64,000 nt of DNA. It comes from an uncultured Candidatus Bathyarchaeia archaeon. Lineage in GTDB: Archaea > Thermoproteota > Bathyarchaeia > RBG-16-48-13 > CAYPFQ01. The DNA lies in the NCBI GenBank assembly GCA_964410135.1, contig CAYPFQ010000001.1:22560-86559 (forward strand), written 5' to 3'. Under the pieces are notes generated by a model. It did not search any database. It was not told the DNA's origin and worked only from the letters and a program-made list of their open reading frames with translations. Shown in pieces: positions 1 to 57,751 of the stretch. The position numbers and the translations under genes are program-made. How positions within the stretch are numbered: position 1 is the first letter of the stretch; each line of letters opens with the position of its first letter.

Positions 1-2443
1 TTGGTCCACAGGTTTTGCTTTTCCGAGTATGCCCGCCGCTTCATGTTTTGCCAGTTCTTCTCTGAGTTTTGCGATTTCCCGCTTCGCCTCTCTCAATTCC
101 ACCTCAATTCTCTGAGCAGCCTCTGGAACCTTTTCTAGATGGGTTTCATGGATTTCAGCTGCTCTTCGTAGTGCGGTTTCTCTATGCTGGACGAGTTTAA
201 TTGCAGGCACCCCCGCCGAAAATATTAGTCTTTCAACACCGTCCTGAATTCTGTCCGTGCGCATAATTTTGATTAGGCCCACCTCGCCAGTCGAACGACA
301 ATGGGTTCCTCCGCAAGCTTCGACTTCCCAGTCTTTGGTCCTAACTACTCGGATCTCTCTGCCTGGCACCACTCCACCCTGGTACAACCTAAATCCATAG
401 GCGGCTTCAGCTTTCTCTCGGGGCATCCAGGACACTTCGACAGGCATGTTCTCCATTACAATCATGTTGGCCAGGCTTTCAATTTCAGCCAGTTCATCTG
501 GAGCTATTCGCTTATAGTGTGAGATGTCAAGACGAGTGGCATCAATGCCTTTCTGCGCACCAGCTTGCCACACATGTTCTCCTAGAACCCTCCTTGCAGC
601 GCCCATTAGGATATGGGTTGCCGTGTGATGGCGCATGAGGCTGATTCGTCGAGTCCAGTCGAGTTCGCCCTCAACTTGGGCGCCTACATTTGGAGCGTTG
701 CCCTTGACTGCGTGCACGATTACATTGCCAACCTTCTGCGCATCTGTGATTTTAGCCTCTCCACTCTTCCAAGAAATGCGGCCATGATCTGCAGGCTGTC
801 CTCCGCCTTCAGGATAAAAGGCTGTTTGGTTTAGCACAAGATATTTGCCGTCTATGACATGGGAGACACGTGCCTTGAACTTGCGGGTATACGCATCTTC
901 ATAGTAAAGGGATCTAGTTGGTTTTTGGTCAGCCACCTTATCCTTTAATTTCTTCTCAAAGGATGTGACGGCAGGTTTAGGCGCAGTAACATGTCGTCTT
1001 GCCACGGTGGTGTAGAAATCATCTGGTACATTGACCTGTACATCCTCTTTGACAGCAATCTCCGAGACTAGAGTTGGCGGAATCCCGTGAGAGTCGTAGA
1101 GTTCAACAAGCTTGTTTACAGGGATGGTGTCTTCTCCTTTGGCTTTCAGATCACTGCAAATTTTTTTCACGAGCACAGTTCCACGTTCGAGAGTTCCGCG
1201 ATATTTTTCCTCCTCAATAGCTAGCACTTCTAAGATTTCGTTACGCACTCGTTTTAGGTGTGGAAAATCTGGAGACCAGAAATTAATTTGTAAATCTACT
1301 ATATCTGAGAGTCTGTTCTCGATGCCCAGCAATCTCAGTAGACGATAGGTCCTGCGGAGCACTAGCCTAGTTAGATAGCCTTCCCGTACATTTGAGGGGA
1401 CAATCCCTTCGGCAAGCATGAAGACTAGGCTTTTAGTGTGATCGAGAACTGCGAAAACGCTTTCAACTGGGGTTAGGATCTTGTGGAGCGTATCTAGATC
1501 CATGCCAATTTTTCTTGCGATTTGCTCCCGAAGTTTTTTGACATTGGCTACTTTTTCAACTCTCATGTCGCCTGAGTGCTTCGCATATTCGGATAATAGT
1601 TTTTCATCTGGCGACAGCGCGGCCATACGCATAACTTTGTCTAATGTGGATCCATATATGGCGTGAAAACAGCTTGGGGTACCTTGAGTCAGCCAAGTGT
1701 AGCGCTCTATTCCGTATCCAGTGTCGACAGTGCGGACTGGGAGTTTGATGAATTTTCCGTCTACTACTTTGTAGTTCATAAAGACAAGCGTGCAGACTTC
1801 GAAGCCTCCAATTATTCCTTCAACATCTGGTCCAGCGTTTCCGCCACCCGACCAAACACCTTCCTTGTAGGTTACGGCTTCTGATCTCACTCCCAGCTCC
1901 TTCACGACGAGTTCATGGTGGTATCGGACTGTCTGATCTTTCCAGTAGACTTCTTTCTTCGGATAGTTGAAAGCGTGATGCCCGCCCATCTCGAATATAG
2001 TGAGGTGTCTGCCGAACGTGAGCCCCACATTATCTATGTCCACAAATCTGATGCAGGGCTGGCTGATTACGAGCGGGTTGGCTGGGGGCGGAATAATTCC
2101 ATCCGTCACATAGGGCTGAAAGTCCACGATGCTGGCATCTGTGAAGTATAGGTCGTCTCTCCACCTCGACACGACTGGGTAGGGCGCGATCCGTTTATGC
2201 TTCTTTTTTTCGAAGAAGGATAAGAATAACTCTCGCATTCCTGGTATGTCATAGCGTTTTTTAGCTGGAGGATGCCCTATGAACTCATATTCTTGGCAGG
2301 GAGCTTCTCCACAAATTTCTTGATCGTGAATTTGAGTCCAATAAAATTCCCCGCATGTCTTACATTTTTTCCTAACGAATCCATGCTCATCGAAGAATGG
2401 GATGTGATACTCACTTTCAGGAAACTCTACCAAGGGCGATCCT
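1..2443 (-). CDS. alaS: alanyl-tRNA synthetase, N-terminal ~814 codons (C-terminus lies beyond window start); probable TTG start at 2441-2443
   Basis: Reverse translation near 2300-2443 gives (M)VEFPESEYHIPFFDEHGFVRKKCKTCGEFYWTQIHDQEICGEAPCQEYEFIG, the archaeal AlaRS N-terminus. The region ~300-640 gives the editing-domain motifs HTATHIL and CGGTH. It runs off the window edge, so the ORF track did not list it. Confidence 0.85.
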
Positions 2444-2639
2444 CCAACTATGACAAGCGTAGGGCTTTCAAACAGAAAAGGTTAGGGATAATTTTTAACC
2501 CTTTGCACATGCCAATATGCGCACGCTTAAGGCTTGAGCTAGAACATTAGATCTCTTAAAAAAGTGGTTAAGAAATCGGCGAGGAAGAGAAAATTTAATG
2601 CCTCTAACTTATAGAGGGCCCAAATAGAGCTGATAGGCT

Positions 2640-16597: not shown

Positions 16598-17371
16598 CTA
16601 TGAAAATTTCCTTGGTTTAACTGGCACTCTAAACAGCGCGACTGTTGCCGCCAGAATGACGAAGAGGATTATCTGAGCGGCTGGGAATTCTGGGATTACG
16701 ACGCTTGAGATCGATATGTTTCCCCAGTCGTTTGGAATTGACTCTGATGCCATTGGCCAAGTCAGTTGGTTAACTGGAACATTATCGTATACTACAACGT
16801 AGAATCCAATGTTGGTGGCGTTGAGAACTCTCAGCGGTATTTGAAACTCGTAGATTACGTGCGATACGGTTGAATATGGGTCGTCTACAGCGTTAACTGA
16901 AGTACGTCCTTCAAATTCGGATGGGATTGTGGGTTCCCAGCCGCCCCACGTACCTCCGCCACCTGCTGCGTAAAGTGTGTTAAACATTGTGGGACCCCCC
17001 CATCTTTCCAGTAGGATGAAGTCGTCTGCCTGAGGGGCTGCGCCGCCATCATGTTTGCCATCCACATATAGCGCGCAGTAGTCTCCCCCCTCTCCGCTCA
17101 CGTCAGAGAGAACATCGACTAAGATGTAAAGGTGGTTGGGATCATGTTTTGTCCGCATGTATGCTACGCCCGAACCTTGGACAACTAACAGTTTAACTTC
17201 CGCCGCATCCGCCCACTCAGTGGAGTTCGTCCACTTTCCATCTACAGTAACAGGGTTTATGGCTAGGTATGCGGTTGTAGTAGGGCCTGATCCTGCTTTA
17301 ACTATGTTTGTTGGAAATACTGTTAGACAGAGAAGAGTAATTGTGGCGATTACCAAACCAAGTCTTTCCAA
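16598..17371 (-). CDS. secreted surface protein with signal peptide and PEF-CTERM-like sorting tail
   Basis: 257 aa. The N-terminal signal peptide is MERLGLVIATITLLCLTVFPTNIVKAG. The C-terminus is IPEFPAAQIILFVILAATVALFRVPVKPRKFS, a PEF tripeptide followed by a TM helix and a basic tail, which is the archaeosortase-target architecture. Confidence 0.5.
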   Translation of the reverse strand: MERLGLVIATITLLCLTVFPTNIVKAGSGPTTTAYLAINPVTVDGKWTNSTEWADAAEVKLLVVQGSGVAYMRTKHDPNHLYILVDVLSDVSGEGGDYCALYVDGKHDGGAAPQADDFILLERWGGPTMFNTLYAAGGGGTWGGWEPTIPSEFEGRTSVNAVDDPYSTVSHVIYEFQIPLRVLNATNIGFYVVVYDNVPVNQLTWPMASESIPNDWGNISISSVVIPEFPAAQIILFVILAATVALFRVPVKPRKFS

Positions 17372-51647: not shown

Positions 51648-51842
51648 GCTCTGTATTTAATAATTGCTTGCTATAATTGTGGGCAACTTTTATTGGTAAA
51701 AAGTGGGCAAAAAACTAAGGTTTGCTCTTATTGTGGGTCAAGTTTTCATGTTATTCGAGCTAAGATTATTGCACGCGAGCGCTCTGCAAGGAGAGCTTCT
51801 CTTGTGCTTAGATCGTTGAAAAGGGCAAGAAAAGAGGGCTAA
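51648..51842 (+). CDS. zinc-ribbon reading frame (C-x2-C-x15-C-x2-C plus basic tail) directly in-frame after the TAG stop of the kinase gene; no canonical start before the first CxxC
   Basis: Translation continues ...GWM*ALYLIIACYNCGQLLLVKSGQKTKVCSYCGSSFHVIRAKIIARERSARRASLVLRSLKRARKEG*. The only in-frame ATG, GTG or TTG is a TTG lying between the two CxxC pairs. Confidence 0.35.
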   Translation, partial: ALYLIIACYNCGQLLLVKSGQKTKVCSYCGSSFHVIRAKIIARERSARRASLVLRSLKRARKEG

Positions 51843-53389
51843 GATGTGTTCTGAGCTTCATCTAGATGTGTTTGTATCAGGGTGTACCTAGTCTGCCCAG
51901 TTTTTTCATCGAGTTCTTTTTTGATTATGCCCTTCTCTGATAGCTCATTTAGAATTGGTACCGCTATTGGGTAAAACTCTGAGGTGGATACGACAGTCTT
52001 AATTTCATCATCGGTAAGAGATCCGTATTCTTTGAATAGCTGGTACAGCTTTGTTTGCATAATCAATTTTGCCATGGGCGGTTGCGAAGGTTTCTCTGCA
52101 ATTTCTATGTGGTATTCATAAAATCTTTTTTGCATTGTATTTTTCAGTTGGTCGTCAGATAACTGTGATAGGATTGAGGATTCTGTTTCTACATAGATTG
52201 GGAATGCGTAGGGGATTAGTGGCATGTTTACGATGGCTTCACCAAGTTTGAGATAGTGAAGATAACTTGCCTGTCTCTCAGTGAGCTTCATTGCTCCCTG
52301 CAGAATTTTTCGGTCATCCTCTGTCTTTATTTGGTGACAAATCCTTGTTGCAGCATTTTTCAGAATCTCATAAGAAACCTGTGTTGGAAACTGTGAGATT
52401 ATCACTAATCCTTCACCAAATTTTCTAAGCTCTGAAATCATCTTCTCTCCGATTGATGGCGGGTCTTCAGGGCGTCTGGCTGGGATTATATTGCGGGCTT
52501 CTTCGATTATTGTCACATGTTGGAGTTTAGAAAATTTCTCTTTCGTACGGTAATCATATAGGAGCTTAAGAAAGATTGAAGTGAAAATTTTTCTAATTTC
52601 CTGTTCCTTAAAGTGTCCCAGTTCTACAGACACTATGTCACTTAGAATATCTTCAATTGGGATTGTTGTTTGCCCGTTCAATGCTTTACCTGCCTGTCCC
52701 TCTGTTAGTGGTTTCAGCCTCCTAAGCAGGGCCAATTTGGTTTCATTGTCGTAGGCTGAGCGTATCGGAGCGCGTTCTATCTCCTGAACGATATCTGAGA
52801 CTATAGGTGGCAGCGATGGTTTCTCGCTAAAATAGCCGCATCTTCTATATGTACTCCGCAGTGCTTCCCTAAACATGTACCCTTGCGGCGGTGTGAAGTT
52901 GAATATATCCGTAAAAATATCTGTCACGAGACTCATGTGTTCGCTCAGATCTCCGGAAAGCGAGGGATCCAACGGGTTCACAGTTAATGGTGCTACATCT
53001 TTTCCAGGCGTGAAAACTAACCCATTTTTATGAGATACTATATTCCTGTACTCATTGTGCCAATCAATCACTAATACCTTTATTCCGAGTTCCACAAGTC
53101 TCGATAGAATCACACTGGCAGTTGTTGATTTTCCCGATCCGGTCATTCCGAAGATCGCGATGTGCGTATTCAAGTCTTCGAGACTTAGATGCACCCCGTA
53201 GAGATTGTTCCCATGTTTCTTAACCCAGCCTAAAAATGGACCGTCCCTTCGCACTTCACTTGGTCTTGGGAGATTAAAATAAGGTTCGACTACAAGATCG
53301 ACGGTCGTAGGTGTTGGCATGATAAAATTAGTCAGGGTAACAATTTCAGGTGCGATTAATGTTGAGGTTGAGGAACTGGAAAAGGGCAT
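51839..53389 (-). CDS. DUF87 ATPase (HerA/FtsK/VirB4-like) with C-terminal wHTH-like segment
   Basis: 516 aa. Walker A is FGMTGSGKST. The DWHNEY motif is typical of HerA/VirB4-type ATPases. It is the last gene of the operon. Confidence 0.7.
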   Translation of the reverse strand: MPFSSSSTSTLIAPEIVTLTNFIMPTPTTVDLVVEPYFNLPRPSEVRRDGPFLGWVKKHGNNLYGVHLSLEDLNTHIAIFGMTGSGKSTTASVILSRLVELGIKVLVIDWHNEYRNIVSHKNGLVFTPGKDVAPLTVNPLDPSLSGDLSEHMSLVTDIFTDIFNFTPPQGYMFREALRSTYRRCGYFSEKPSLPPIVSDIVQEIERAPIRSAYDNETKLALLRRLKPLTEGQAGKALNGQTTIPIEDILSDIVSVELGHFKEQEIRKIFTSIFLKLLYDYRTKEKFSKLQHVTIIEEARNIIPARRPEDPPSIGEKMISELRKFGEGLVIISQFPTQVSYEILKNAATRICHQIKTEDDRKILQGAMKLTERQASYLHYLKLGEAIVNMPLIPYAFPIYVETESSILSQLSDDQLKNTMQKRFYEYHIEIAEKPSQPPMAKLIMQTKLYQLFKEYGSLTDDEIKTVVSTSEFYPIAVPILNELSEKGIIKKELDEKTGQTRYTLIQTHLDEAQNTS

Positions 53390-54327
53390 AAAAAATTTCC
53401 TATAGTCTCGAGAAGTTCCACATTTTTGAGTTGTAACGCCTCCATTTCGGGAAAGACGGCGACTATCGCTGCAAGAACGCTGTTCACATTTTCCGCGAGC
53501 CTATTAAGAAGATTATCTAATTCGTTTTTGTCACCATCAGCCCATATGAAAAATAGTACTTCTGTTTGGAAGAATCCTACCTTGCTACCAAGATAAAGCC
53601 TCTTCAACTCAGATTTCTCTTCTTCGAGCATTCTCTCATCCACCGCTCCTAACGTGGCTTTTGAATCTCCTATGTATTTCACATCAGATTCTAATTGCCT
53701 TAGTTTTGACTTGAGTAGTTTTGATTCTGTACTGATTGGGTTAAGAGAAACGACGTAAATGCACGGTATGCCGCGTTTCTGAATACCTGAGAAGAAATCA
53801 CGTAGCTTATAGAATGTGGAAATGTACTCTAGCCGATTTGAGTAGGCCTCATCGCTTATTTCAACCTCAGGAATTCTAGGTCTGCCAGTAAGCCGTATCA
53901 CGGCCATTGCCCTAGCCCTCGATTTTGATTCAAATATCAGCGATCTTCCTTGCATAAGTTTGGCAGCTGTAACATTTAGTGCTTGAAAAATTTCTATTTC
54001 ATTTTTACCAACTACTCTTAACCGAATACCTGCTCGCCGTAGTATTCCAGTAACCTCCGAGGAAAAATGTCGCAGGAGAAGTGCACCGCCAAATAGGAAT
54101 GCGCTTCCTACGATAAGGGGGAGGTCTATCCCGCCAATTTTAGATGGAATTTTAATGCTTGATGACGTAAGCAACCAGCGTAAGTCAAGCAGTATGATAA
54201 TTGCCATGATGATTGGTATGCTAATCTGCATCAATCTGCCATCAGGCTTAGGCATAGGACTACCTTCGGCTAACCGGTCCACATCCAGCTGAATAAGCCT
54301 TGAGCGATCTCTTGTATCTCCTTCCAA
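53356..54327 (-). CDS. membrane-anchored protein (N-terminal TM segments + cytoplasmic domain), unknown family
   Basis: 323 aa with a hydrophobic N-terminal region (IPIIMAIIILLD, LPLIVGSAFLFGGALLL). It overlaps the DUF87 ATPase gene by 34 nt. Confidence 0.35.
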   Translation of the reverse strand: MEGDTRDRSRLIQLDVDRLAEGSPMPKPDGRLMQISIPIIMAIIILLDLRWLLTSSSIKIPSKIGGIDLPLIVGSAFLFGGALLLRHFSSEVTGILRRAGIRLRVVGKNEIEIFQALNVTAAKLMQGRSLIFESKSRARAMAVIRLTGRPRIPEVEISDEAYSNRLEYISTFYKLRDFFSGIQKRGIPCIYVVSLNPISTESKLLKSKLRQLESDVKYIGDSKATLGAVDERMLEEEKSELKRLYLGSKVGFFQTEVLFFIWADGDKNELDNLLNRLAENVNSVLAAIVAVFPEMEALQLKNVELLETIGNFLCPFPVPQPQH

Positions 54328-54491
54328 GTCTGACCGAAAAAGCTGGTGACCATGTTTATGACATTATGTACTAGTCCCAGCATCACGGTCAACATGAATA
54401 GTGCTATGACAAGCAGTAATCCCTCTTCCACTAACTGGGTTGCCGAGGTATTTCTGATCAGATCTAGGATTCGTTTGATTATGCGTTTCAC
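54270..54491 (-). CDS. Flp/type-IV-pilin-like small protein (candidate prepilin)
   Basis: 73 aa. The charged N-terminus MKRIIKRILDLIRNTSATQLVEEG is followed by a hydrophobic helix LLLVIALFMLTVMLGLV, which resembles the Flp prepilin pattern. Confidence 0.4.
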   Translation of the reverse strand: MKRIIKRILDLIRNTSATQLVEEGLLLVIALFMLTVMLGLVHNVINMVTSFFGQTWKEIQEIAQGLFSWMWTG

Positions 54492-54546
54492 TAAAACTCC
54501 TTCCTATGCAAATTTTTCAAGATCTATTTAAGCACCACATCTCACA

Positions 54547-55374
54547 TCAGTAAACAAGAAGCATCGGTAAAAATGAGGTAGCCACAATGAATATCCCCCA
54601 AAAAACTATCAGGGATGCGACAGAGTACATGTACGGGTTTTCAGCAAACGACATCAACCCAGCATAGTATGCAGAGATGCTAGATGTTACTGAAATGGCT
54701 ATTGCAAGAAGCCAGTGCACATTGAATGCTAAATTTGATCTAACAGCTAGATGTGAGATGATGATCGCCGAGAATAGCGGCAGCATGGCTAATAAGATAG
54801 CTGATGATGCCGAACAAGCAACTATTAGAATCTTAATCTTGAAAGACAGCCCCTTTGCTACATGCTCTCTCTCTTCTAGAAGCCTGCGGTTCTCTCGATG
54901 TCTTAAAATAGCTTGTGCCAGATGCTCTCCTGCTTTTTTTGAGTCGGTTTCAATAAGTCTGCAGACCATGAACATCAATGGACGGAGTTTTTTTAAGTTT
55001 GGCTGAGATGCCATATAATCGAACACTGAAACAAGTGGCAAACCACTCGCGATTCTGTTAGATACCTCGAGTAGTTTAGCACGTAATGGTCCGGCATAAT
55101 GGCTAATTGTGTTTTCATATGCAAGCTCTGGGCTGTTGCCTCGTTTTAGTTCCTCAGCAAGAAGCGTCAGAAACGATTCAAATTCACTCACTGCTTGACT
55201 TTCATTAATCTCTTTTTTTGTAAATATGGTCGGTAGCAAAGCCAAGATGGTTATCGTAATTGCAACGAAAGTAATGATGGCTATAGATGGGGTATACGTA
55301 ACTATGTAGATCGCTAGAGCTGCGAGAAAACCACACATAATTCCTGTAATCGTTTGGAACCGAGAGCCTCTCAT
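54547..55374 (-). CDS. TadC/GspF-like pilus platform membrane protein (T2SSF-like domain)
   Basis: 275 aa. TM helices at the N-terminus, a central cytoplasmic helical domain and C-terminal TM helices give the T2SSF topology. Confidence 0.55.
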   Translation of the reverse strand: MRGSRFQTITGIMCGFLAALAIYIVTYTPSIAIITFVAITITILALLPTIFTKKEINESQAVSEFESFLTLLAEELKRGNSPELAYENTISHYAGPLRAKLLEVSNRIASGLPLVSVFDYMASQPNLKKLRPLMFMVCRLIETDSKKAGEHLAQAILRHRENRRLLEEREHVAKGLSFKIKILIVACSASSAILLAMLPLFSAIIISHLAVRSNLAFNVHWLLAIAISVTSSISAYYAGLMSFAENPYMYSVASLIVFWGIFIVATSFLPMLLVY

Positions 55375-56180
55375 CCTAATAGATGCGCCTCGTTTCGCGT
55401 TAATCTATGGAATGTAAGATCCATCAATATGGTGTGAAGTGGAACTATTAAGAAAACATAGGGTGAACTGAATAAGCCCAGCATGGTTATGCCGAAAGAG
55501 AACACTAATGGTAAGAAGAAGCCTGAAGCTATGAAAACAAGTGCCTGACTTTCAAATTGAAGTGAAAACTCCTGGAAATAGCCTCTAACCTCAAACTCAG
55601 ATAAATCAATTAAATGTCGCAGAGTCCCTTCAGTTAGCATGCGCGAGGAGAGAATCTCAATAAGGCCGTGTCGAAATGCTATTGAAGGTTGGCTGTGCGC
55701 ATAATCCATCAATAATTTATCTGGATCTCGCCCGCTAAGAGTCTGAAAACTGACCTCCTTGATTTTCTCAGAGACATAGGGATAGTTTCCCAGTATAATT
55801 GCCTGTAATGCGTCGAATATCGATCCCGTTGATTTAAGAATGAAGTAAAATTCTTGAAGTATCAAGCTTGTATAGCTTGAGATCGTTATTCGTTCTACTC
55901 TTAGTTTATTCGGCAGATAATTGATAAGAAGTAAGAATGAAATATAGCCAAGCGTGATGGAAATGACTGTTGCAATTAAAGAATTTAAATAGAATAGAAT
56001 TGAGAACGTAGCTAACCCAATTGTTGTGGATATGCCCAAGGCGCCGGCTATCACGTCTTCTGGTTTAAATTTATAATAAATCGCGGCATTTTTTGTTAGT
56101 TCACTCAGAGGGATTCTCCTAACAACCTTGAGTGGAATTACTGGCGCAAAAAATGTGAAAGCAGTCCTTATCAGATTCAA
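55371..56180 (-). CDS. TadB/GspF-like pilus platform membrane protein (T2SSF-like domain)
   Basis: 269 aa with the same topology as its neighbour. The two are coupled by 4-nt overlaps, looking like a split FlaJ/TadBC. Confidence 0.55.
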   Translation of the reverse strand: MNLIRTAFTFFAPVIPLKVVRRIPLSELTKNAAIYYKFKPEDVIAGALGISTTIGLATFSILFYLNSLIATVISITLGYISFLLLINYLPNKLRVERITISSYTSLILQEFYFILKSTGSIFDALQAIILGNYPYVSEKIKEVSFQTLSGRDPDKLLMDYAHSQPSIAFRHGLIEILSSRMLTEGTLRHLIDLSEFEVRGYFQEFSLQFESQALVFIASGFFLPLVFSFGITMLGLFSSPYVFLIVPLHTILMDLTFHRLTRNEAHLLG

Positions 56181-57751
56181 TGTTCAAATCTCGCATCGTG
56201 CTGTCTAAGAAACTCAAGGAATTCATCCCAGTCGGCGGATCCATCTTGTTCCCATCCTATTTTTGTGGCGTGTAGATAATGGAATATCTCTACATTTTCT
56301 CTAACTCCAAAAATCTGGTTTTGAGCGAGCATCTTGAAGAGTTTTTTGTAAGCATTGTATTCGTCATAAAATTTTGCGCTATCAATATGCTCTATTTTTA
56401 TAATTTTTTGAAATACGGGAGCTTCAGTTAGATCGCATGCCAACTTTAATGTGGAGTCAGCTGGATCCCATGAGAAGATGTCCTGTAAATTTATTGTCGA
56501 GATGTCTAGGCAAACCGGTTTATTAGGTAAAGCAACTTCACAAATCTTTATAACTCTTCGCACATCTTTTCCAGAGATACGTAGCTTTTTAGTTTGAACG
56601 ATTAAATCTAAGTCAAAGAAGCATATGACTGGAACTTTGTGATGGGTAGCCCATCGGACGATCGCCTGTTCAGGTGATGCCGCATGACAGGTTTGAAGCC
56701 CTTTTAGACCTGCTGCGAGAGCATGAAACATGGCTAAACTATGCTCAGCTGTTTGGATTTCTCCCAGATAGATCCAATCAGGTGCCCTATGCAGTAATTT
56801 TATAATCTCAACGCTCTTTGTTAGGCCTTCGCGGTCGAGGGATTCGAACGGTTTAACTTTGAGCCGGATTTGGTGATTGCCAAATTTGGTTTGCGGAATG
56901 CTTTCAACCACATCTTCTACAGTTATTTTTCGCCACTCAGGGGGAGTCAGCAGGTCTATCGTATTAATCAGCGTGGTTTTTCCAGATCCGGGTTCGCCGA
57001 TGACAGTTATATTCCGTTTTCTCGTCAAGCAAAAGTAAAGGTAGGCCGCTGCTTCAGAGGTTAGTGTACCGTTAAAGATCAATTCTGGTAGAGTGAAATA
57101 TTTTCTCCGTAATTTTCTGATATCTAGATGTGCACCGTCAACCGATAATGGAGGGATATCGATCGAGAATCTGGCTTGGAAATCGTTTGCGAATAGCTCT
57201 GTTTTTAAAGAAGGGTTTATGGCATCTAGCCGTAGCCCACTTTCTGCTCTTAGTCTAGTCTTTAGAGCCGAGACTTCTCTCCCAGATAAGTGTATGTTTG
57301 TTCGGCAACGTCCCCATCGCCGGTGATCTATGTATAAAAACCCATCCGGATTGTCCAAGAAGATCTCGTCAACATCTTCGTCAAGCAAGAAGGGCATTAT
57401 CTTCAAAAGACGCATTGATCTGTAGGCCGCTAGAATTGAGAGGGTATTAACTTTACCCTCCGGTAAGACTGGGTATTTCAGCTTCAATTGATTTTTAGCT
57501 TCGGTAATCCTTTCTGCTGTTAAATCTTGAAATTTTGGAAATTGACAGTTTGACAAATTAGAATTTAACCTAAGTGCCTTAACTAGCTCATCGATGATTC
57601 CCTTTAATTGGTAATAACTGGCATCGGGGGATATATGGTAAAAACATTCAGACATCTTAGGTAATTGAGGTTCGTAGATTCTAATCCTATACGGTCCAAC
57701 AGCATGTTCTTCTACAAAATTACACGAATTCAAAATTGAATCCGACATCAA
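56177..57751 (-). CDS. type II/IV secretion-family ATPase (TadA/FlaI/VirB11-like)
   Basis: 524 aa. Walker A is VIGEPGSGKTTLINTI. The downstream GEI...His-box region is WIYLGEIQTAEHSLAMFHALAAGLKGLQTCHAAS. The N-terminal domain has the typical length. Confidence 0.8.
   Translation of the reverse strand: MMSDSILNSCNFVEEHAVGPYRIRIYEPQLPKMSECFYHISPDASYYQLKGIIDELVKALRLNSNLSNCQFPKFQDLTAERITEAKNQLKLKYPVLPEGKVNTLSILAAYRSMRLLKIMPFLLDEDVDEIFLDNPDGFLYIDHRRWGRCRTNIHLSGREVSALKTRLRAESGLRLDAINPSLKTELFANDFQARFSIDIPPLSVDGAHLDIRKLRRKYFTLPELIFNGTLTSEAAAYLYFCLTRKRNITVIGEPGSGKTTLINTIDLLTPPEWRKITVEDVVESIPQTKFGNHQIRLKVKPFESLDREGLTKSVEIIKLLHRAPDWIYLGEIQTAEHSLAMFHALAAGLKGLQTCHAASPEQAIVRWATHHKVPVICFFDLDLIVQTKKLRISGKDVRRVIKICEVALPNKPVCLDISTINLQDIFSWDPADSTLKLACDLTEAPVFQKIIKIEHIDSAKFYDEYNAYKKLFKMLAQNQIFGVRENVEIFHYLHATKIGWEQDGSADWDEFLEFLRQHDARFEH

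Follow-up and report, generated by a model that had tools for sequence, protein, structure and literature searches.

What does a gene for a very short membrane protein contribute to an archaeal operon that encodes a secretion-type ATPase and its membrane platform? The locus lies in a stretch of 64,000 nucleotides (nt) from an uncultured Candidatus Bathyarchaeia archaeon (GenBank assembly GCA_964410135.1, contig CAYPFQ010000001.1, positions 22,560 to 86,559), which is referred to below as the window and whose numbering is used throughout. The gene, encoding a protein of 73 amino acids (aa), belongs to a co-directional row on the minus strand, composed of two coiled-coil genes, an ATPase gene, two platform genes, the small gene itself, the gene of an orphan membrane protein designated TM299 and a gene for a HerA-type ATPase; the genes around this operon are archaeal housekeeping genes (thermosome, histone, ribosomal proteins). 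The 73-aa protein is probably a short prepilin, carrying a signal peptide of class III, and most likely serves an Epd/Tad-like type IV filament as its major fibre subunit. The original prediction had suggested a short Flp-like prepilin beside a Tad-like set of ATPase and platform genes; a prepilin remains the best explanation, but the family models fail to recognise the protein, the gene order differs from that of tad loci, and the HerA/CedD-like module had not been considered.

The predicted open reading frame (ORF) is present on the minus strand, its translation agrees with the 73-aa product quoted for it, and its start codon is GTG. A codon-level comparison gave pairwise dN/dS ratios (nonsynonymous to synonymous substitution rates) of 0.03–0.06 for the small gene, with synonymous sites near saturation, against looser values of 0.10–0.21 for the adjacent platform gene; the small gene is under strong purifying selection. 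Public metagenomes hold near-identical and 81–83% identical versions of the protein, and the same operon slot is occupied in about 20 related loci representing about 10 distinct lineages, with 34–40% identity in the distant ones. Conservation in syntenic loci, on which the original prediction had been made to depend, was found in every syntenic locus examined, even in contigs where gene callers had skipped the ORF, e.g., L005 and L006 (L-numbers denote the fetched loci). A HMMER search of 1.84 billion cluster representatives returned only 15 proteins at E ≤ 1e-3, and a further 17 loci, including L008 and L009 from Bathyarchaeia metagenome-assembled genomes (MAGs) and L010 from a 'Nitrososphaeria' MAG, came from scanning GTDB genomes and JGI metagenomes; a scan of viral contigs found no relatives. 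This is a rare, small family, and the set used for its analysis comprises 24 distinct sequences, i.e., the 15 cluster representatives and the sequences read from fetched loci. The failure of several gene callers to call the gene in L005 and L006 and the lack of a database family might suggest a non-functional chance ORF in an intergenic spacer, but the conservation data, both at the codon level and across distant lineages at the same operon position, exclude this for practical purposes, and a conserved promoter-like element and a Shine-Dalgarno-like site lie upstream. Antisense to the small gene, a 61-aa ORF (54346–54531, plus strand) is also open in L006; the codon usage of the conserved sense gene, which would leave this frame open as a by-product, is the simplest explanation.

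In the alignment of the 24 sequences, a Lys/Arg-rich leader of variable sequence and length (about 5 to 23 aa) is directly followed by an abrupt onset of conservation at [A/G]-[T/S/A]-Q-L-V-E-E-G-L-L-L. Averaged over columns, the entropy amounts to 2.26 bits for the leader, 0.59 bits for the box (residues 17–27), 1.33 bits for the rest of the transmembrane (TM) helix and 1.65 bits for the C-terminus. Such a passage from a variable leader to a constrained box would be expected if a class III signal peptide is cleaved off a constrained mature N-terminus. Two registers of cleavage can be proposed. In the Flp register, the candidate site is A17|T18, with E22 at +5 and Ala or Gly (Cys in one lineage) at −1; in the Epd/EppA register it is T18|Q19, with Gln at +1, E23 at +5 and Thr, Ala or Ser at −1. 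Both registers place Glu at +5 because the two Glu residues are invariant, while the Gln of the box occurs in 23 of the 24 sequences and is preceded by Thr, Ala or Ser, never by Gly. In Flp numbering, Glu+5, Gly+7, Leu+8 and Leu+9 are near-invariant; Ala, Gly or Cys occupies −1, and +6 carries Glu in place of Tyr. The residues of the putative processing box place it between the rules for Flp and for Epd; the EppA/Epd rule comprises Gln at +1 and Glu at +5 (PMC4371748, PMC3875500), and 'Epd-like' would be as apt a name as 'Flp-like', the conserved Gln fitting that rule at least as well.

The hydrophobic helix of the window protein extends to V41 and is followed by an amphipathic, aromatic-rich C-terminal helix, whose aromatic residues are conserved in the family (FF.Q.W..L..IA.GLFGW). 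AlphaFold 2 (AF2) modelling with the family alignment (pLDDT 87.8) predicted a short leader helix and then one continuous helix, comprising residues 15–66; the modelled shape is that of a head-less, Flp-type 'all-alpha1' pilin without a hairpin. An ad hoc class-III-like pattern (a leader with two or more Lys/Arg, one small residue, an acidic +5 position and then a strongly hydrophobic 17-mer) fits 2 of the 307 six-frame ORFs in the window, namely, the small gene and one antisense ORF inside a large gene. A Sec-type signal peptide was rejected on account of the 17-aa n-region and the two Glu residues opening the hydrophobic segment. The mature candidate (54273–54437) contains seven Phe/Trp in its 55 residues, and the longest stretch between them is 18 residues; the conserved aromatic positions include F32, F52, W56, F67 and W69. 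Such an aromatic content is reminiscent of the criteria proposed for conductive short pilins, and a weaker second reading would be that the short, aromatic-rich mature pilin resembles the proposed conductive short pilins.

The family was compared with Flp pilins retrieved with Caulobacter PilA, all of them annotated with PF04964, of which 24 were aligned. An hhalign comparison gave a probability of 67%, an E-value of 5e-5 and a score of 28.9 over 55 columns, and it paired SA|TQLVEEGLL with SG|ATAIEYGLI, i.e., with the processing boxes in register. In 100 column shuffles, in which the leader, TM and C-terminal regions were kept, the mean score was 11.3 (standard deviation 2.6, maximum 20.9) and none reached 28.9; the reversed alignment scored 14.2, and the N-termini of five other single-TM families from related loci scored 10.7–15.9. 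The Flp score is not compositional, because the shuffles and the reversed alignment score far lower; it lies above background and below the level that usually proves homology for short hydrophobic proteins. We read the similarity as real but remote; it suffices for the view that the protein would work like a Flp/Epd pilin and is too little to place it in PF04964. The hhalign comparison of the small family with five pilin-like families of the related loci was not significant.

The neighbouring genes (Table 1) provide the company expected by the original prediction, which had placed two platform genes immediately upstream of the small gene. The window's own two platform proteins miss the Pfam T2SSF model, and the claim was borne out through orthologues, which match PF00482 at 1e-6 to 1e-7 (best E-value for platform protein 2 orthologues 1.2e-6, with a weak PilC match in PDB); the two platform proteins are weakly homologous to each other (hhalign E-value 1.9e-4). 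The assembly ATPase matches FlaI (4.5e-32) and TadA-family (1.8e-26) models in NCBIfam and, in PDB, Archaeoglobus GspE (2OAP, 9e-29), FlaI (6e-25), CpaF/TadA (8e-19) and VirB11 (1e-8). Of the Tad-type gene set, the ATPase and two T2SSF genes are present, and an A24 peptidase is found in relatives, not in the window. The addition 'as in tad loci' was imprecise, as the gene order differs from that of bacterial tad loci. Canonical bacterial tad loci have flp as the first gene, and tadC is followed by tadD and pseudopilin genes. Two separate single-domain T2SSF genes and short major pilins are common to Epd-like and Tad systems (Denise et al. 2019, PMC6668835).

Table 1. Features of the small-gene operon and its surroundings (window positions)
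Feature	Position	Strand	Remarks
Two small coiled-coil proteins, 148 aa and 98 aa	57765..58504	(-)	Open the operon; conserved with the ATPase
Secretion/assembly ATPase, 524 aa, archaeal GspE/FlaI/CpaF (TadA) type	56177..57751	(-)	PF00437, 1.5e-17
Platform protein 1, 269 aa, single T2SSF domain	55371..56180	(-)	4 of 7 orthologues match PF00482, best 1.6e-7
Platform protein 2, 275 aa, single T2SSF domain, TadB/TadC or EpdJ/K type	54547..55374	(-)	3 of 7 orthologues match PF00482
Conserved BRE/TATA-like 12-mer GGTGCTTAAATA	54525..54536	(-)	33 nt upstream of the GTG; once in the window
Shine-Dalgarno-like GGAAGGAG	54497..54504	(-)	5 nt upstream of the GTG; direct sequence reading
73-aa prepilin-like gene	54270..54491	(-)	Variable basic leader (residues 1-16), conserved box, hydrophobic helix, C-terminal helix
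Codons of putative processing box S16-A-T-Q-L-V-E-E-G-L-L-L27	54411..54446	(-)	Low column entropy, hhalign pairing
TM299, orphan of about 299 aa	53356..54255	(-)	Two N-terminal TM helices, cytoplasmic domain of about 220 aa; always follows the small gene
HerA/CedD-like P-loop ATPase	51839..53389	(-)	PF01935 (DUF87), 2.6e-22; Walker A GMTGSGKST and Walker B IIEE intact

The statement that no prepilin peptidase is visible in the window also stood: tblastn searches of the window with four orthologous A24 peptidases and a hidden Markov model (HMM) built from three of them found nothing, and the window membrane proteins scanned are DUF1616, rhomboid and FtsX-like. In the related loci, an HMM-based synteny table of the fetched loci indicated a fixed order, with arrowheads giving the direction of the genes: TFB-like> <pl5 <pl4 <pl3 <pl2 <pl1 <A24-peptidase, followed by cc1> cc2> ATPase> T2SSF1> T2SSF2> small> TM299> HerA-like> <AAA_18 kinase-like, where pl1–pl5 are pilin-like genes and cc1 and cc2 the coiled-coil genes. 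The peptidase and the five pilin-like genes divergently adjoin the operon in L001, L005, L008–L010, L012, L013 and L019–L021, and, among the fetched loci with enough upstream sequence, the exceptions are the window, its nearest relative L006 and the variant represented by L003 and L004. The A24 Pfam match reaches 39.8 bits in L010 (cutoff 26.5) and falls just under the threshold in L009 and L001; catalytic-type motifs, with D in '(I/V/L)D(F/W/I)(K/R)' and 'G(D/E/S)GD', were seen in the peptidases of the relatives. The products of pl1–pl5 have short leaders followed by a hydrophobic helix, mostly with an acidic residue about five residues in. NCBIfam and Pfam gave no pilin family for them, and we infer 'minor pilins' from their N-terminal architecture and position.

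The two genes downstream of the small gene raise the question of whether it belongs with the filament or with them. TM299 has no match in Pfam, NCBIfam, PADLOC or PDB, including profile searches of Pfam and PDB, and its single-sequence AF2 model (pLDDT 40.6) is unusable. In fact, the HerA-like ATPase probably starts at M24 (53320), like its orthologues. Its best NCBIfam match is CedD (7.4e-57, 193 bits), in the ATPase domain only and below the cutoff of 600 bits, followed by HerA (1.4e-21, 76 bits) and VirB4 (3e-11, 42 bits); PDB searches gave Sso HerA (4.7e-16) and a VirB4 match at 6e-6. The loci L003 (L003:10940-13737) and L004, whose platform protein is 46% identical, keep the cc1-cc2-ATPase-T2SSF1-T2SSF2 row and lack the small gene, TM299 and the HerA-like gene; the corresponding slot encodes a soluble protein of 183 aa, an ATPase of the KaiC/FlaH-like type (DnaB_C/ATPase in Pfam) and a protein with a V4R domain. 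The L003/L004 operon contains no pilin-like gene and no GGYGNTTAAATA element. Here the 'secondary ATPase' seems to have been exchanged as a module, and, because the trio sits where the related locus has the KaiC/FlaH-like ATPase, TM299 and the HerA/CedD-like protein can provisionally be regarded as the 'secondary ATPase' module of the system.

Among the HerA-like orthologues, that of L008 (L008:11094-12380) keeps its operon position and has a degenerate Walker A motif (IFGDQDTDILET versus IFGMTGSGKST in the window), and the acidic pair of Walker B is lost. The L008 protein is probably a pseudo-ATPase that has been kept for structural reasons, and the degeneracy argues for at least a partly structural role. 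The HerA-like proteins of the window, L001 and L005 lineage carry a C-terminal extension of about 110 aa with weak winged-helix matches (Cdc6_C, E-value 0.075; HTH_56, E-value 0.11), which is missing from the shorter orthologues in L016, L021 and L022 and may be a DNA-binding tail.

The small gene is also marked by a conserved sequence. Each of the 22 fetched loci with the small gene has a single GGYGNTTAAATA element, in every case directly upstream of the gene, and the 2 fetched loci without the gene have none; the remainder of the spacer is not conserved between lineages. The 12-mer looks like an archaeal B-recognition element (BRE) with a TATA box and would be a putative internal promoter; as TM299 starts 14 nt after the stop codon of the small gene, this promoter would drive the small gene, TM299 and the HerA-like gene together. 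In two database entries, P0012 and P0013, and at L012:9314-9583 and L013:6798-7067, the N-terminal 'MWCLNS...' and 'MGCLNR...' represent the GGTGTTTAAATAG element read as codons, and the true starts lie about 18 codons downstream of the predicted ones. At the outer end of the minor-pilin/peptidase cluster, all lineages with the cluster have a divergent paralogue of transcription factor B (TFB; TFIIB-like, with a Zn-ribbon; L001:1658-2677, L008:1258-2349, L010:2429-3283 and equivalents), of which there is no copy in the window. BRE is read by TFB. In Sulfolobales, a TFB paralogue activates the Ups and Ced genes (PMC9905601). For these two reasons, the TFB paralogue of the cluster could be the factor recognising the unusual GGYGN that lies upstream of the small gene's TATA box.

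Several observations weigh against the assignment of the 73-aa protein as a prepilin. There was no match to PF04964 (Flp_Fap), either for the window protein at E ≤ 1 or for the 15 family members at E ≤ 10, nor to PF04021 (Class_IIIsignal, motif QxSxExxxL) for the window protein or the 15 members; by eye, Q19, E23 and L27 fit Q+1, E+5 and L+9 of the latter motif, and +3 is Val, not Ser. No NCBIfam pilin model recognises the family, and scans of the small protein and all 15 members with Pfam, NCBIfam and PADLOC returned only TMEM169-like noise. A PDB sequence search with the family profile yielded chance coiled-coil matches only, and a Foldseek search of PDB with the AF2 model gave no match, a single helix being uninformative. 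The canonical Gly is not the rule before either candidate site, position −2 is usually Ser and not Lys/Arg, and Glu replaces the Tyr+6 of the Flp motif. Thus, of the suggestion that the N-terminus recalls the Flp/class III signature, the alignment of the box in register with Flp and the Glu at +5 stand, while the two Pfam models and the Tyr do not support it. Furthermore, the entire protein, including the C-terminal helix that would be exposed on the surface, is unusually conserved for a major pilin; the short gap to TM299, followed by the HerA-like gene, apparently makes these genes one transcription unit; and the peptidase/minor-pilin cluster is lacking at its usual place in the window and L006, and anywhere in the window.

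Some of these points would be expected under the main alternative, in which the small protein would be a non-polymerising bitopic membrane subunit, e.g., an anchor or a regulator, of the TM299/HerA(CedD)-like module, its prepilin-like N-terminus being a matter of shared topology only or an exapted pilin-like helix. The three genes are co-oriented and are present or absent together across the fetched loci, the promoter-like element heads the trio, and L003 and L004 retain the ATPase and platform genes without all three; a highly conserved C-terminal helix suits a fixed protein–protein interface better than an exposed fibre surface, and the lineage of the window and L006 retains the trio with the peptidase/minor-pilin cluster not adjacent. 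We consider this explanation less probable than a prepilin: the change from a variable leader to a near-invariant EE/Q box is predicted by processing and not obviously by an uncleaved anchor, the Flp similarity is in register and well above that of shuffles and other TM-helix families, most lineages have a dedicated A24 peptidase at the locus, and no other gene of the operon proper could supply a short major pilin.

The CedD match suggests another relationship, with mating pilins. CedD is needed for DNA import in Saccharolobus (PMC11868833), and the Ced and Ted pilins are small, hydrophobic and encoded near such ATPases (PMC9905601), so that the small protein might be a VirB2/CedA1/TedC-like pilin in a DNA-transfer apparatus of the Ced/Ted-like type, with the adjacent ATPase of the VirB4/HerA clade driving the apparatus. 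However, CedA1, TedC and VirB2 are hairpins of two hydrophobic helices (PMC9905601, PMC11868833), whereas the small protein has one hydrophobic and one amphipathic helix, predicted by AF2 as a single continuous helix. The neighbouring polytopic proteins are of the T2SSF type and not VirB6/CedA-like, the main ATPase groups with GspE, FlaI and CpaF and not with VirB11, the HerA-like protein matches the VirB4 models weakly, and a class-III-type box and A24 peptidases belong to type IV filaments, not to the pilins of type IV secretion systems. Taken with these differences, a mating pilin is very improbable.

If the 73-aa protein is a prepilin, the following course of events can be proposed. The small gene would be transcribed from its own conserved BRE/TATA-like element within the operon and translated from the GTG that the sequence places behind the Shine-Dalgarno-like site. 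The basic leader would remain in the cytoplasm and the hydrophobic helix would insert with the N-terminus in and the C-terminus out, and a prepilin peptidase of the A24 aspartic type, adjacent to the operon in most relatives and not encoded in the window, would cut off the leader of 17–18 residues at A17|T18 or T18|Q19, so that the mature protein would have about 55 aa and Glu at +5. If Tad and Epd pili are a guide, the pilin would then be pulled out of the membrane and assembled into a thin, almost entirely helical filament by the FlaI/CpaF-type ATPase together with the two platform proteins. In the relatives, the five pilin-like proteins may serve as minor or priming pilins, and TM299 and the HerA/CedD-like ATPase would form a co-transcribed accessory module.

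A comparison with described systems shows resemblance to both parents of the Epd/Tad designation. In Methanococcus maripaludis, the major pilin has 74 aa, 62 aa of them in the mature form (PMC3875500), and the Epd (EppA-dependent) pili of this organism (major pilin EpdE/MMP1685; short DUF361/Class_IIIsignal pilins) share with the present system the size (73 aa and about 55 aa predicted for the mature protein here), a Gln readable as +1 with Glu at +5 and no Tyr at +6, two single-domain T2SSF genes with a FlaI-family ATPase (PMC6668835), and larger minor pilins with a dedicated A24-family peptidase, the latter being encoded here in the locus of relatives. Unlike the Epd pilins, the small protein lacks the PF04021 match, its mature part has no N-glycosylation sequon, and its leader of about 17 aa does not end in Gly, whereas Epd leaders have 5–13 aa and end in Gly (Ala in EpdA). 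The peptidases of the relatives contain 189–228 aa, while EppA is reported to be much larger; here the secondary ATPase is of the HerA/CedD-like type and has a membrane partner, instead of being FlaH/KaiC-like; and the host is of the Bathyarchaeia type (TACK), not a methanogen.

With the Flp pilins of bacterial Tad systems (type IVc; Caulobacter PilA, PF04964), the small protein shares the size class, a basic leader of about 14–26 aa, the box small|xxxxE-x-G-L-[IL] in register and a mature protein that is essentially one helix, and the locus shares a TadA/CpaF-like ATPase and split TadB/TadC-like platform proteins. Apart from the failure of PF04964, Glu for Tyr at +6 and Ala for Gly at −1, the differences concern the locus: the small gene is located behind the platform genes and not at the locus head, secretin, RcpC and TadZ are lacking, the TM299–HerA/CedD-like module sits where bacterial Tad has TadZ, and the system is archaeal, with an archaeal-type promoter element. 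The Ced and Ted systems of Crenarchaeota (CedA1/TedC, CedB/CedD) are similar in the CedD-like ATPase of the HerA clade, encoded here two genes downstream, and in the small hydrophobic proteins encoded beside the ATPase. They differ in the two-helix hairpin of their pilins and in the VirB6/CedA-like channel gene, which is not present in the locus here; in addition, the CedD match covers the ATPase domain only, with 193 versus 600 bits, and TM299 does not match the N-terminal region of CedD.

A short class III pilin in an Epd/Tad-like locus is a known kind of element, and the sequence family is new to the databases. The combination of a HerA/CedD-like ATPase and an orphan membrane protein was found in no described archaeal type IV pilus locus, and Makarova et al. 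(2016) list none; the archaeal type IV pilus census names HerA only as a superfamily (PMC4858521). Searching the literature for type IV pili and Flp in Bathyarchaeota gave no result. The locus variant, in which a TACK host, an internal promoter conserved between loci and a HerA/CedD-like ATPase paired with an orphan membrane protein come together, is absent from the census. Bathyarchaeia are abundant sediment archaea that are uncultured or barely cultured, and their cell-surface biology is essentially unknown. For them, a conserved Epd/Tad-like locus is now defined, together with a family of very short pilin-like proteins often missed by gene callers and unseen by Pfam and NCBIfam. The features by which Denise et al. 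(2019) connected archaeal Epd-like pili with the origin of bacterial Tad pili, namely, split single-domain platform genes and short pilins, are found here in a TACK lineage, and the association of the HerA/CedD-like protein with TM299 offers a lead to a new kind of secondary ATPase or to a function in DNA handling.

In Sulfolobales, the type IV pilus Ups and the Ced system cooperate in DNA exchange (PMC11868833). It is conceivable, albeit unlikely, that the locus encodes a single machine that joins a Tad/Epd-like filament to a membrane-anchored translocase of the CedD/HerA type and serves DNA uptake or exchange in Bathyarchaeia. Were this so, the fibre of the 73-aa protein would capture or conduct DNA or bring cells together, TM299 and the HerA-like protein would pump DNA across the membrane, and the locus would be an archaeal counterpart of bacterial competence pili with a DNA translocase, or of Ups and Ced of Sulfolobales united in one locus.

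Elsewhere in the window, an Rfam scan found one tRNA only. A 257-aa protein (16598–17371, minus strand) with an N-terminal signal-like helix, a C-terminal TM helix and no Pfam family may be anchored at the cell surface, and the sequence of an ORF of at least 827 codons that runs off the window start (1–2600, minus strand), and that accounts for the absence of listed ORFs in this part, suggests an aminoacyl-tRNA synthetase.

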